64,000 nucleotides of DNA from Methylobrevis albus (lineage in GTDB: Bacteria > Pseudomonadota > Alphaproteobacteria > Rhizobiales > Pleomorphomonadaceae). Shown here one piece after another: positions 7,590 to 17,809 of the stretch (within the stretch, counting starts at the first letter, position 1; each line of letters begins with the position of its first letter). The stretch spans positions 449,794 through 513,793 of the forward strand of contig NZ_JADZLT010000040.1 of NCBI RefSeq assembly GCF_015904235.1. The letters are read 5' to 3'. The translations under genes were made by a program, and so were the position numbers. The notes below the pieces were generated by a model. The model ran no database searches, was not told the origin of the DNA, and worked only from the letters and a program-made list of their open reading frames with translations.

Positions 7590-8966
7590 ATGCGAGTCGT
7601 GATTTGCGGAGCCGGCCAGGTCGGCTACGGCATCGCCGAGCGCCTGGCCGCCGAGGAGAACGACGTCACCGTCATCGACACGTCGCCGCGGCTGATCACC
7701 GGCATCCGCGAAACGCTCGACGTGCGCGGCATCATCGGCAACGGCGCGCATCCCGATGTCCTCGCGCAGGCGGGCGCCGAGGAAGCCGACATGATCATCG
7801 CCGTCACGCTCTACGACGAGGTGAACATGGTGGCCTGCCAGGTCGCCCACTCGCTGTTCAACGTGCCGACCAAGATCGCGCGCGTCCGCGCCCAGAGCTA
7901 CCTGCAGCCGCACTGGCGCGACCTGTTCTCGCGCGAGCACATGCCGATCGACGTGGTGATCTCGCCCGAGATCGAGGTCGGCGACCTCGTGCTGCGCCGG
8001 CTCGCCTATCCGGCGGCGGTCGACATCGTGAAGTTCGCCGACAACAACGTGCTGGTGCTCGGCCTGCGCTGCGGCGACGACTGCCCGGTGGTCGACACGC
8101 CGCTGCACCAGCTGTCGGAGCTGTTCCCGAACCTCGGCGCGGTGGTCGTCGGCATCGCCCGCGGCACCACCGTGTTCGCGCCGAAGAGTTCGGATTCGAT
8201 GCTGGTCGGCGATCTCGTCTACGTCGCGATGCACCGCGACAGCGTGCGGCGGCTCCTGAAGATCTTCGGCCAGGACGAGCCGGAGGCGACGCGGATCGTG
8301 ATCGCGGGCGGCGGCAACATCGGCGCCTATGTGGCGCGCATGGTGGAGAAGGCGAACCCCGCCGCCAAGGTGAAGGTGATCGAGGCCTCGCGCGAGCGGG
8401 CGGTGCAGATCGCCGACGACCTCGAGCGCGCCGTGGTGCTGCACGGCTCGGCGCTCGACCAGGCGATCCTCTCGGAAGCCGACGTCGAGACCGCCGACAC
8501 GCTGGTCGCGCTCACCAACGAGGACGAGGTCAACATCCTCGCCTGCGTGCTCGGCCGCACGCTGGGCGCACGGCGCACGCTGAGCCTGCTCAACAACGCG
8601 AGCTATCCGACCTTTGCAAAAGCGCTCGGCATCGACGCCTACATCAACCCGCGCGGCGTCACCGTCTCGAAGATCCTGCGCCACGTGCGCCGCGGGCGTA
8701 TCCGCGCCGTGCACACGGTGCAGAACGGCGCCGCCGAGATCATCGAGGCCGAGGCGCTCGACACCTCGCCGCTGGTCGGCAAGCCGCTGCGCGAGCTCAA
8801 CCTGCCGGCGGGCGTACGCATCGGCGCGGTGTTCCGCGCCGGCAAGGTGTTGACGCCCGACGGCGATACGCGGATCGTGGCGCGCGACCGGGTGATCATC
8901 TTCGCGGTTGCCGGCCGGGTGCGGATGGTGGAACAGATGTTCCGCGTCAGCCTCGAGTTCTTCTGA
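7590..8966 (+). CDS. trkA: Trk system potassium uptake protein TrkA
   Basis: Two tandem NAD-binding TrkA-N domains (GAGQVG, GGGNIG) and TrkA-C domains. The start was placed at the internal ATG (MRVVICGAGQVG). Confidence 0.9.
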   Translation: MRVVICGAGQVGYGIAERLAAEENDVTVIDTSPRLITGIRETLDVRGIIGNGAHPDVLAQAGAEEADMIIAVTLYDEVNMVACQVAHSLFNVPTKIARVRAQSYLQPHWRDLFSREHMPIDVVISPEIEVGDLVLRRLAYPAAVDIVKFADNNVLVLGLRCGDDCPVVDTPLHQLSELFPNLGAVVVGIARGTTVFAPKSSDSMLVGDLVYVAMHRDSVRRLLKIFGQDEPEATRIVIAGGGNIGAYVARMVEKANPAAKVKVIEASRERAVQIADDLERAVVLHGSALDQAILSEADVETADTLVALTNEDEVNILACVLGRTLGARRTLSLLNNASYPTFAKALGIDAYINPRGVTVSKILRHVRRGRIRAVHTVQNGAAEIIEAEALDTSPLVGKPLRELNLPAGVRIGAVFRAGKVLTPDGDTRIVARDRVIIFAVAGRVRMVEQMFRVSLEFF

Positions 8967-14361: not shown

Positions 14362-14907
14362 TCAGGGCTTCGGCAGGTCGCAGGCGGTGATCGTCGCCAC
14401 CTTCGTCGCGTAGCGCACGGCCGGATAGCCGTCGAAGAAGTCGGGCACCACGAAGGTGCCGGTCGAATCCGGCGGGATCACGGAGGCCGCCGTCACCGAG
14501 ACGGTGGAGAGGTTGAGATCCTGGGTCGCGACCTCGATGCCGGTCAGCAGCTTGTCGGGGAAGATGTTGCGCACCTCCCAGGTGAAGATGTTGAGCTGCT
14601 GGCGCCACGAGGCGCTGGCGGCGCGCACGGCGCGGAATTCGTCGCGGGTGAGCGGGCGCGGCGTGCAGGCGGCATAGGCCTCGTAGAGCCCGGCCTTGCG
14701 CAACCCGTCGAGCGCCTCCGAGGTGCACATGTCGCGGCAGGCGCGCACGCCGTCGGCCATCTTGAAATGGTCCTGGCTCACCACCGGATCGGCCGCGATG
14801 CAGGCCGAGAAGCAGTCCGCCCTTGCCGCTGCGCCGCTGCCGAGAAGAATACCGACGGCGAGCGCCGCTGCGCCGGCACTCGGCGCCCATGCCATGATCT
14901 TCCGCAT
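14362..14907 (-). CDS. hypothetical Cys-rich secreted protein
   Basis: Start at MRKIMAWAPSAGAAALAV (signal peptide). It contains 6 Cys, has high GC3 and is co-directional with the downstream SBP gene. No recognisable family. Confidence 0.5.
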   Translation of the reverse strand: MRKIMAWAPSAGAAALAVGILLGSGAAARADCFSACIAADPVVSQDHFKMADGVRACRDMCTSEALDGLRKAGLYEAYAACTPRPLTRDEFRAVRAASASWRQQLNIFTWEVRNIFPDKLLTGIEVATQDLNLSTVSVTAASVIPPDSTGTFVVPDFFDGYPAVRYATKVATITACDLPKP

Positions 14908-15128
14908 CGTGATCCTCCCGTGCGGCCGGTCTTCGGCGCGCAAACGTCGCGGCCGGCTGTTGTGGTCGCAACTCACTACGTGCGCGCGGGACAACCGGAC
15001 CATGCGGCGACCCGCCACGCTCCGGCAGCCGTGGCGGAACGGTTGAAATCGCGCGGCCGGGATGTTGTATGGCCTTGTCCATACAGGCCGGCGCCAGCCG
15101 GGCGCGGGGACGAGCGGGGACGCGGACG

Positions 15129-15872
15129 ATGACCTTGGACAGTGGGCTCTCCGAGCAGGCCGGGCCGCTCTACGAAAAGGTGAAGGACTACATCCGCCGC
15201 AACATCGAGGCCGGCCATTGGACCACCGACACGCGGCTGCCGTCCGAAAACGACCTCGTCGCCCAGCTCGGCGTCTCGCGGATGACCGTGCACCGGGCGC
15301 TGCGCGAACTCACCGCCGCCGGCCTGCTCCGGCGTATCCAGGGCGTCGGCACCTTCGTCGCGGTTCCGCGGCCGCAGTCGGCGCTGGTCGAGATCAACGA
15401 CATCGCCGCCGAGATCCGCGCCCGTGGTCACGCGCACCGCTCGAAGGTGCTGCGGCTCGAGACGGTGACGGCCTCGACCGAACTGATGCTCGGCTTCGAG
15501 ATGACCAGCCGGCGGCCGCTCTATCACTCGGTCGTGGTCCACTTCGAGAACGACATGCCGGTGCAGCGCGAGGAGCGCTTCGTCAACCCGGCACTGGTGC
15601 CCGGCTACGCCGCCCAGGATTTCTCGACCCGCACCACCTTCGACTACCTGCAGAGCCAGGCCCCGCTGACCGAAGTCGAGCACGTCATCACCGCCGTGGC
15701 GGCGGACGCGGCGATGGCGGCGGAACTCGCCGTTCCCCCGGGCGACCCCTGCCTGCTGCTGCACCGGCGAACCTGGAGCGGCGCGACGGTGGCGACGGTG
15801 AATCGTCTGACCTATGTGGGCAGCCGCTACGCGCTGGGGAGCCGGTATCTGACGGGGACGCGGGCGGGGTAG
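15129..15872 (+). CDS. hutC: GntR-family transcriptional regulator, HutC subfamily
   Basis: N-terminal wHTH (LPSENDLVAQLGVSRMTVHRALRELTAAGLLRRIQGVGTFVA) closely resembles histidine-utilisation repressors. A C-terminal UTRA effector domain is present. No hut catabolic genes occur in the window. Confidence 0.8.
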   Translation: MTLDSGLSEQAGPLYEKVKDYIRRNIEAGHWTTDTRLPSENDLVAQLGVSRMTVHRALRELTAAGLLRRIQGVGTFVAVPRPQSALVEINDIAAEIRARGHAHRSKVLRLETVTASTELMLGFEMTSRRPLYHSVVVHFENDMPVQREERFVNPALVPGYAAQDFSTRTTFDYLQSQAPLTEVEHVITAVAADAAMAAELAVPPGDPCLLLHRRTWSGATVATVNRLTYVGSRYALGSRYLTGTRAG

Positions 15873-15889
15873 GGCTGGGTGCCGTCTTG

Positions 15890-16960
15890 CCCTTCTCCAC
15901 GGTCGTTATCTCCGCGAATGCGGGGATGTCGGCTGAGAGGGAGCAGGCGAGGGACTGCCCGCGCCCTCGTCTAAACGCCCGCTTCTTGCCGACTGTCAGT
16001 GCCTCCATGGACGTCACCCCCTCCCGGAACGTCATCCCTCCCAAGGACGTCATCCCCGCGAAAGCGGGGATCCAACTGTCGACTGGGGGCGAACTGTCGG
16101 ATCGGTCTGGTGTTGCCGGGGGGCACCGGGGCGGGCGCTATGCCTCTCTGCGTCTCCGCCCTCGCGGAGAGTTGGATCCCCGCTTTCGCGGGGATGACGA
16201 CCGCGAGGCGAGCGAGGAGAGGCGACCGGTGTCCTCCGGCCTCGCCGCGGTCTTGCCGTCGTCCGCCGCCAATGCGGGGATCGAACCGTCCGCCGGGGGA
16301 GAATCATTGAGGGAACTCCTTCCCCTCCACGGCCGTCATCCCCGCGAAAGCGGGGATCCAACTGTCGGCTGGGGGAGAACTGTCGGATCGGTCTGGTGTT
16401 GCCGGGGGGGCGCCGGGCGGCGGGCGCTATGCCTCTCTGCGTCTCCGCCCTCGCGGAGAGTTGGATCCCCGCTTTCGCGGGGATGACGACTGAGAAGCGA
16501 GAGAGGAGGGATGACCGGGCGGCGGGCGCTATGCCTCTCCGCGTCTCCGCCCTCGCGGCGAGTTGGATCCCCGCTTTCGCGGGGATGACGCCCGAGAGGC
16601 GAGAGAGGCGGGACGACCGGCGTCCTCCGGCCTCGCCGCGGTCTTGCCGTCGTCCCCGCCAATGCCGAGATCCAACCGTCCGCCGGGGGAGAATCATTGA
16701 GGCAACTCTTCCCCTCCACGGCCGTCATCCCCGCGAAAGCGGGGATCCAACTGTCGGCTGGGGGAGAACTGTCGCATCGGTCTGGTGTTGCCGGAGGGTT
16801 TCATCGGGCGGCGGGCGCTATGCCTCTCTGCGTCCCGGCCCTCGCGGAGAGTTGGATCCCCGCTTTCGCGGGGATGACGACCGAGAGGCGAGCGAGGCGG
16901 GACGACCGGTGTCCTCCGGCCGCGTCGCGGTCCTGCCGCCCATCCGTCCCAGGCGCCGCT
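15890..16960. repeat. tandem array of MITE/REP-like palindromic elements
   Basis: Three full about 150-bp elements (16049..16198, 16335..16487, 16724..16877) plus a half element (16516..16589). Each is bounded by 29-bp inverted termini GTCATCCCCGCGAAAGCGGGGATCCAACT, and each terminus contains a 10-bp-stem GAAA-tetraloop hairpin. The elements sit within an about 390-bp higher-order tandem duplication. A degenerate copy lies at 15897..15930. Confidence 0.9.
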
Positions 16961-17035
16961 TTCCCGGCATCGCCAAAATCTGCTATGCGGCTTGCGACTT
17001 CGCGTCGCCCGACGAACCGAGAAGAAAGATCGCCG

Positions 17036-17809
17036 ATGACCCCCTCCATTCGCCCGCTCGTGGCCGGAAACTGGAAGATGAATGGACTGGCCGCCTCGGC
17101 CGCCGAGTTCAGGGCGATCCTCGCCGGTTATGACGCGAGCCTCGCGGGCGCCATCGATCTCGCGGTGTTTCCGCCGGCGACGCTGCTCGCCGCCTTTGCC
17201 ACGGCGGCCGCGGAGACGGGGGTGATCGTGGGTGGGCAGGACTGCCATGCGGCGGCCTCGGGCGCCCATACCGGCGATATCTCGGCCGAGATGCTGGCGG
17301 ATGCCGGGGCGGGCGCGGTGATCGTCGGCCATTCGGAGCGGCGCACCGACCACGACGAGACCGACGCCGACGTCTGCGCCAAGGCGCTGGCGGCGCGGCG
17401 GGCGGGGCTCATTGCCGTGATCTGCATCGGCGAGACGCTGGACGAGCGCGACCGCGGCGTGACGCTCGACGTCGTCGGGCGCCAGCTCACCGGCTCGCTT
17501 CCCGTGGGCGCGACGGCGGCGAACGTCGTCGTCGCCTACGAGCCGGTGTGGGCGATCGGCACCGGCCGCACGCCGACGGCCGAGGACGTCGCCACCGTGC
17601 ACGCCTTCATCCGCGACCGGCTGGTGCACCGCTTCGGCGCCGAGGGCGAGGTGATCCGCATCCTCTACGGTGGCTCGGTGAAGCCCGGCAATGCGGCGGA
17701 GCTGATGGCGATTCCCCATGTCGACGGCGCGCTGGTCGGCGGCGCCAGCCTCAAGGCGGCCGACTTCCTCGGCATCGCCGGCGCCTACCGGTCGCTGACC
17801 GCGGCCTGA
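17036..17809 (+). CDS. tpiA: triose-phosphate isomerase
   Basis: [17 protein letters not shown] with catalytic motifs ([17 protein letters not shown]). The ATG at 17036 lies in the same frame as the repeat-derived track ORF 16697..17809. Confidence 0.95.

Follow-up and report, generated by a model that had tools for sequence, protein, structure and literature searches.

In Methylobrevis albus, hutC and tpiA are separated by 1.1 kb (positions 15873-17035 of the 64-kb stretch of DNA that was analysed, hereafter the window), and this gap is filled by a cluster of hairpin repeats whose unit, judged from its sequence, is the known CGTC-1 repetitive extragenic palindrome (REP), also described as NTS or as an Ssn-related motif (SRM), and not a new element. 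Because this is a known repeat family, described in 2013 and provided with a protein partner in 2025, the novelty of the array is low; it is a real and ordinary feature, a textbook member of a very widespread bacterial family of hairpin repeats. We consider it probable, with good confidence, that the array is a tandem-duplicated cluster of CGTC-1 REPs, or SRMs, whose units act as single-stranded targets of an Ssn nuclease, as the biochemistry of homologous motifs suggests.

The CGTC-1 class was defined by Di Nocera, De Gregorio and Rocco (BMC Genomics 2013, PMC3733652) among the CGTC-tagged REPs by a CGTC (or TGTC) head, a CCA tail and, between them, an 8-bp stem that starts with AT and closes a 4-nt loop; it is found mainly as HH dimers (tags outside), mainly in alpha-proteobacteria, and equals dRS3 of Neisseria and RPE-6 of Rickettsia. 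In the window, the 29-mer GTCATCCCCGCGAAAGCGGGGATCCAACT is present in seven exact copies (starts 16049+, 16170-, 16335+, 16459-, 16561-, 16724+ and 16850-), none being expected by chance in dinucleotide-preserving shuffles of the window. All seven begin with CGTCATCC... on their own strand and so carry the unpaired CGTC head; this is followed by an 8-bp stem (ATCCCCGC/GCGGGGAT) whose first pairs are A-T and T-A and which closes a 4-nt GAAA loop (minimum-energy fold of -9.8 kcal/mol as DNA, z = -4.75), and by the CCA tail, found in the form ...GGGGAT-CCA-ACT in 7/7 copies. The GAAA tetraloop proposed in the earlier note is thus present, with a stem that folding puts at 8 bp and not at the 10 bp given there.

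A second description of the same kind of unit comes from Chenal et al. (Nat Commun 2025, PMC11893778), who named an oriented hairpin NTS (CGTCATTCCCGCGMAVGCGGGAATCYRG) and its broader class the SRM. Of the 28 positions of the NTS consensus, 25 are shared by the window unit, and of the three that differ, two make up a compensatory stem pair; the published pattern used to search for SRMs fits the unit too, apart from its last position. The bases critical for Ssn, GTC 5' of the palindrome (cleavage) and a C just 3' of it (binding), are kept in 7/7 copies. The likeness to the NTS/Ssn system extends to the oriented hairpin and to identical 26-mers that bracket ssn homologs in other genomes, whereas the window differs from it in the stem (ATCCCC/GGGGAT vs ATTCCC/GGGAAT), in the tail (CCAA vs CYRG) and in having no ssn.

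The arrangement of intact and decayed units, and of the longer repeats in which they are embedded, is as follows.

15897-16130: oldest copy of the ~390-bp block, gapped and decayed (alignment score 153, vs 4.7 +/- 3.5 for shuffles)
15908-15927, minus strand: decayed hairpin copy (ATCTCCGCGAATGCGGGGAT), inside the oldest block copy
16002-16057, plus strand: short tandem repeat of 18 nt x 3.1 (Tandem Repeats Finder), comprising the 5' flank and the first bases of the 5' arm (..GGACGTCATCC..)
16048-16077, plus strand: intact CGTC-1 REP / Ssn-related motif, left end of dimer 1
16130-16909: higher-order tandem duplication, period 391 bp, 2.0 copies, 92% identity (Tandem Repeats Finder)
16170-16199, minus strand: intact CGTC-1 REP, right end of dimer 1
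16257-16287, plus strand: decayed hairpin copy (CGTCGTCCGCCGCCAATGCGGGGATCGAACC)
16334-16363, plus strand: intact CGTC-1 REP, left end of dimer 2
16413-16620: nested repeat, 102 bp x 2 (Tandem Repeats Finder)
16459-16488, minus strand: intact CGTC-1 REP, right end of dimer 2
16561-16590, minus strand: intact solo CGTC-1 REP, product of the 102-bp sub-duplication (16413-16620)
16648-16677, plus strand: decayed hairpin copy (CGTCGTCCCCGCCAATGCCGAGATCCAACC)
16723-16752, plus strand: intact CGTC-1 REP, left end of dimer 3
16850-16879, minus strand: intact CGTC-1 REP, right end of dimer 3

Six of the intact units pair into three HH (head-out) dimers, at 16049-16198 (150 bp), 16335-16487 (153 bp) and 16724-16878 (155 bp), and the seventh is a solo right end (16561-16589); the whole 153-nt dimer 2 folds as one hairpin (-58 kcal/mol, z = -8.7). 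Three elements of about 150 bp plus a half element, set in a repeat of about 390 bp with a degenerate copy at 15897, had already been recognised from the letters of the window, and this outline holds: the dimers measure 150-155 bp, the period is 391 bp over 2.0 copies, and the older block spans 15897-16130. The inventory of that first description was incomplete, since it missed the decayed copies at 15908-15927, 16257-16287 and 16648-16677; and its 29-bp ends, while indeed inverted and hairpin-forming, are two oriented REP hairpins placed head-out and not terminal inverted repeats (TIRs) of the type found in miniature inverted-repeat transposable elements (MITEs).

The cluster grew by successive tandem duplication of the ~390-bp block and of the 102-bp sub-block and not by repeated insertion, and the duplicated block already held one dimer together with flanking DNA: because the flanks are common to all three dimers on both sides, these are copies made by block duplication, not independent insertions. 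When the two 391-bp units are aligned, the three intact hairpins of each show 0/87 differences, vs 31/306 elsewhere (Fisher one-sided p = 3e-4), and the decayed hairpin copy inside the same block has diverged further. That intact hairpins remain identical while their surroundings diverge points to sequence constraint or homogenisation, by selection for recognition or by conversion.

A search with the 26-nt core of the unit, made on one genome per species, gave exact matches in at least 120 genome stretches (labelled L001 and so on where they need to be told apart), so that the unit belongs to a dispersed family and is not, as the earlier note had allowed, a TIR unique to this locus. Statements about other genomes, here and below, concern the matches listed. 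The GC content of their hosts ranges from 32% to 73%, and the hosts include Parcubacteria/Patescibacteria, Omnitrophota, Hydrogenedentota, Planctomycetota, Bacteroidota/Ignavibacteria and Gemmatimonadota, as well as Rickettsia (32% GC), Magnetococcales, delta-proteobacteria, many alpha-proteobacteria, beta-proteobacteria and gamma-proteobacteria. Of 123 contexts, 83-91 have an inverted partner no more than 80 nt downstream, forming with it a head-out dimer; the spacers, of 13-90 nt, are unrelated. Comparison of the array with the 120 loci by blastn detected no sequence conservation beyond the hairpin and about 25 nt on either side of it; as far as this comparison goes, the spacer and block of the window array are lineage-specific. 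Among the 2.9 million contigs of IMG/VR, the exact 26-mer occurs in eight stretches (L124-L131), one of them with four copies, and none of the eight carries an Ssn or RAYT (REP-associated tyrosine transposase) gene; given this rarity and the lack of either gene there, phages are not an obvious carrier.

Known members of the family offer close parallels. Like the CGTC-1 REPs of PMC3733652, the window units lie in an alpha-proteobacterial host, extragenically between co-directional genes and as head-out dimers, and clusters of dimers reiterated with flanking DNA are described there too; such clusters are, however, rare outside Neisseria and Wolbachia, whereas all copies seen here belong to one cluster. 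The dRS3 elements and Neisseria intergenic mosaic elements (NIMEs) share the 20-bp palindrome pattern ATYCCC-N8-GGGRAT and the habit of forming intergenic arrays of many clustered copies, in which the 50-150-bp segments between copies are themselves repeated; they differ in genus and stem variant, and no filamentous prophage or IS110-type integrase using the site was seen in the window. RPE-6, which Di Nocera et al. placed in CGTC-1, is linked to the window by the exact 26-mer in Rickettsia tamurae (L055); RPEs, however, are often found inside genes, whereas the window cluster is extragenic.

The enzyme that would recognise the units is suggested by the work of Chenal et al. (PMC11893778). Their SsnA, a single-domain GIY-YIG protein of ~94 aa, binds the NTS solely as single-stranded DNA and in one orientation, and cuts a few nt upstream of it; for Ssn homologs from four species, cutting of single-stranded DNA beside the motif of the respective species was shown; an SRM lies near 71% of ssn homologs, and in Neisseria Ssn lowers the recombination of incoming motif-bearing DNA. 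Ssn homologs likewise adjoin the exact 26-mer in four of the loci retrieved here (L096, L110, L120 and L084), with hairpins of the relaxed SRM pattern within ~180 nt of each of the four ssn genes. The open reading frames (ORFs) score against Pfam GIY-YIG in the three complete cases, of 91-104 aa. These three are bracketed in the order hairpin(+)-ssn-hairpin(-), as compact units of 361-530 bp (L096 4416-4776, 361 bp; L120 1465-1955; L110 2993-3522), while in L084 ssn is preceded by an array much like that of the window, made of three head-out dimers in tandem. The only genes enclosed between head-out hairpins in the loci retrieved are ssn. The hairpin-ssn-hairpin unit is therefore the nearest thing to a full-length parent of the dimers, and the transposase-bearing parent sought in the earlier note was not found: the sole bracketed gene encodes a nuclease, the 91-104-aa GIY-YIG Ssn, and not a transposase.

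Two further features of these loci may be recorded. The ssn gene stands in either orientation relative to its bracketing hairpins, and in L096 and L120 the bracketing hairpins form a heterodimer, one with an ATCCCC stem and the other with an ATTCCC stem.

By analogy with these systems, we infer that M. albus has a cognate Ssn that acts on the sites of the array. When the DNA became single-stranded, in replication, repair, uptake or transfer, each unit would fold into its hairpin; Ssn, as a small single-domain GIY-YIG nuclease, would bind that hairpin sequence-specifically and, a few nt to the 5' side of the CGTC head, nick the single strand. The gene-less head-out dimers, having the same architecture as hairpin-ssn-hairpin in other genomes, are best read as its non-autonomous relatives, and any effect on the 3' end of hutC would be a by-product.

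Several points weigh against this reading. With two Ssn seeds and E values of up to 10, tblastn detected no Ssn gene in the 64-kb window, and the 29-mer has no copy in these 64 kb outside the one locus, so that any dispersal within this genome is putative. The last SRM position is A in the window unit, where C, G or T is required, and the Neisseria enzyme no longer cuts once the sequence of the stem is altered (Chenal et al., PMC11893778), so that a stem of the ATCCCC type would need a cognate Ssn of its own. The four of 120 loci with ssn are a small count, given without a computed chance expectation, and the biological role described for the motif is that in Neisseria. As to how the repeats would spread, with one Ssn site per strand in a head-out dimer, simple single-strand excision of the IS200/IS605 type does not follow directly.

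Two competing explanations were weighed. In the first, the 150-bp head-out dimers would be REPINs, non-autonomous elements copied by RAYT, a transposase of the IS200/IS605-like kind. The array has the REPIN architecture of two inverted REPs around a spacer of ~90 nt, and the fold of the entire dimer into one long hairpin conforms to it; moreover, the homologous Neisseria member (ATTCCCGCGCAGGCGGGAATC) has been called a REPIN copied by a Group 2 RAYT (Bertels and Rainey, bioRxiv 10.1101/2021.07.10.451892). REPINs and bacterial interspersed mosaic elements (BIMEs) of E. coli and Pseudomonas resemble the array in being extragenic pairs of inverted palindromes that form clusters of alternating orientation; a domesticated single-copy nuclease that acts on single-stranded hairpins is believed to serve them too. 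Theirs, however, is a GTAG head combined with an HUH/tyrosine transposase, as against a CGTC head and a GIY-YIG nuclease here. Di Nocera et al. (PMC3733652) observed no CGTC repeat beside any tyrosine transposase gene and found no associated enzyme. Searches with the E. coli RayT and a second-round seed returned no RAYT gene in the window and a single one in the 120 loci (L053 2627-3181). This one lies 3 kb from the CGTC-1 dimer and carries on one flank its own GTAG-tagged palindromes (..CTGTAGCCGCGGTCGTTGACCGCGG..), which indicates that the GTAG and CGTC superfamilies coexist with separate partners. The gene bracketed by the motif is Ssn, not RAYT. The published claims about the partner are in conflict (RAYT vs Ssn); our small sample favours Ssn, in agreement with Di Nocera et al. 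and Chenal et al., and we hold copying of the dimers by a RAYT to be unlikely.

The second of these explanations, which we also judge improbable and to about the same degree, operates at the RNA level: the hairpins would be kept because they stabilise or terminate the 3' end of the hutC mRNA, as proposed for E. coli REPs. They are stable, and their site, downstream of a gene and between co-directional genes, is typical of REPs as PMC3733652 describes them. Against this, no terminator-like site was found where 0.8 were expected, no hairpin being followed by a T-run, so that the hairpins are not the intrinsic terminators that the earlier note had considered; neither intrinsic terminators nor promoters were detected in the array, and no Rfam family reached threshold (at E up to 1, only plant and animal microRNA models appeared, far below threshold and as artefacts of long hairpins). 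The lack of both a T-run and an Rfam family leaves terminator or small-RNA readings as at best side effects. A purely structural role in RNA also leaves unexplained the identity of 26 nt across phyla whose GC content runs from 32% to 73%; Ssn does not bind the RNA form, recognising sequence as well as structure (Chenal et al., PMC11893778); and ten copies in both orientations go far beyond the need of one 3' end.

Two other origins for the array are far less probable still. A classical MITE array, in which the 150-bp units would be internally deleted insertion sequences with 29-bp TIRs mobilised in trans by a DDE transposase, agrees with the perfect 29-bp inverted termini and the uniform size of the units that they bound. 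There are, however, no target-site duplications (flanks ..AAGGAC|...|GACCGC.. and ..ACGGCC|...|GACTGA..), the three units share their flanking DNA as duplication products, and identical ends enclose unrelated spacers of 13-90 nt in other genomes. In the loci retrieved, no two exact 26-mers stand head-out around anything longer than a dimer spacer, and the sole genes found enclosed between head-out hairpins are ssn; there is no transposase among the annotated ORFs of the window. We therefore regard a MITE origin as very unlikely; from the earlier proposal of local amplification of a MITE or a BIME cluster, the REP/BIME-like amplification survives and the MITE, lacking target-site duplications, does not. 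That a simpler repeat was wrongly expanded or collapsed in assembly is scarcely credible either: short reads cope badly with repeats of 390 bp, and the array is known here from the assembly, yet comparable tandem arrays of dimers are found in an unrelated genome (L084), and the differences between the 391-bp units, together with the far greater divergence of the third copy, make the copies distinguishable and thus no trivial duplication error. CRISPR was rejected, as it had been from the letters, since orientation alternates, the spacers are themselves repeated, spacing is uneven and no cas gene is present among the annotated ORFs of the window.

A less familiar element of the array is the 18-nt repeat at 16002-16057, which lies directly upstream of the first intact hairpin and reiterates its flank and the start of its 5' arm. 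Comparable half-sites are found in other phyla, where one to five units of GTCATCCCCGCG followed by 7-11 nt, spaced at a period of 18-22 nt, immediately precede intact CGTC-1 hairpins; upstream on the hairpin's own strand is the side on which Ssn is reported to cut. Of 123 contexts, 16 have an orphan match to an 11-nt probe from the 5' arm (GTCATCCCCGC, up to two mismatches) in the 80 nt upstream, vs 3-5 for control combinations of arm and side. About ten of the 16 contexts are clear; the others may be chance matches. The half-sites are very clear in L084 (7250-7310, 7400-7470 and 7560-7680) and also present in L108 (~1330-1375), L034 (~7820-7865) and L055 (~1185-1235), as well as in L001, L016, L031 and L061. 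They are not mentioned by Chenal et al. (PMC11893778) and, as far as we have found, are undescribed. We put forward, as a tentative idea that we think more doubtful than not, that the half-sites in roughly ten unrelated lineages are footprints of Ssn-type cutting plus repair or copying.

The genes on either side of the array belong to the following families.

15069-15872, plus strand: hutC, upstream flank gene, GntR-family histidine-utilisation repressor (NCBIfam TIGR02018, 293 bits vs an equivalog cut-off of 220)
17036-17809, plus strand: tpiA, downstream flank gene (TIGR00419, 173 bits vs a cut-off of 130.6)

The window TpiA matches the 257-aa TpiA of M. albus with 100% identity and coverage, and the true start of the gene is the ATG at 17036. 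The longest ORF over tpiA (16697-17809) starts 339 nt too early, inside the array, and its extension is an artefact of the latter. The spurious ORFs suspected in the earlier note do exist: three, of 82-245 aa (16050-16697, minus strand; 16396-17133, plus strand; 16801-17049, minus strand), are all translation artefacts of the repeats, and a literature search for the peptide strings encoded by the array (VIPAKAGIQ and similar) returned no match.

Downstream of tpiA follow secG and pyrG, and the ORFs annotated in the window represent core genes of the chromosome (recG, ntrY/X, trkA, hflX, mazG, pyrG, glutaminase, gatCAB, a class-II aminoacyl-tRNA synthetase, smpB, dapA, dnaE, rpsB, tsf and clpS); they include no transposase, integrase or cas gene. 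Nor do they include hutU, hutH, hutI or hutG, so that hutC is here an orphan regulator; its other neighbours are a 218-aa ORF without a family match (14362-15018) and an SsuA-like binding protein. The suggestion that the array occupies the place where hut catabolic genes would be expected is thus not borne out, and the neighbour of tpiA in the sister species is ppiD. In M. pamukkalensis, a plain 266-bp spacer without hairpins precedes tpiA (L123 5735-6001), and upstream of it, where M. albus has hutC, ppiD-trpD-trpC-moaC-moeA lie on the opposite strand; ppiD, trpD, trpC and moaC are absent from the 64-kb M. albus window. From this difference in gene order, the array (15873-17035) marks a place where synteny between the two species is broken.

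In practical terms, the 1.1-kb array should be masked as a repeat, as it gives rise to several long false ORFs and to a false 5' extension of tpiA. Methylobrevis albus now counts among the carriers of the CGTC/Ssn-related repeat family, and the identity of its hairpins amid the drift of their surroundings argues that something in the M. albus cell still reads their sequence. If the half-sites are footprints of cutting and copying, they would be the first trace left in sequence by the multiplication of CGTC repeats, and would support hairpin-ssn-hairpin as an autonomous mobile unit, driven by a GIY-YIG nuclease on single-stranded DNA and thus of a new mechanistic type; head-out dimers such as those between hutC and tpiA would then be its miniature derivatives.

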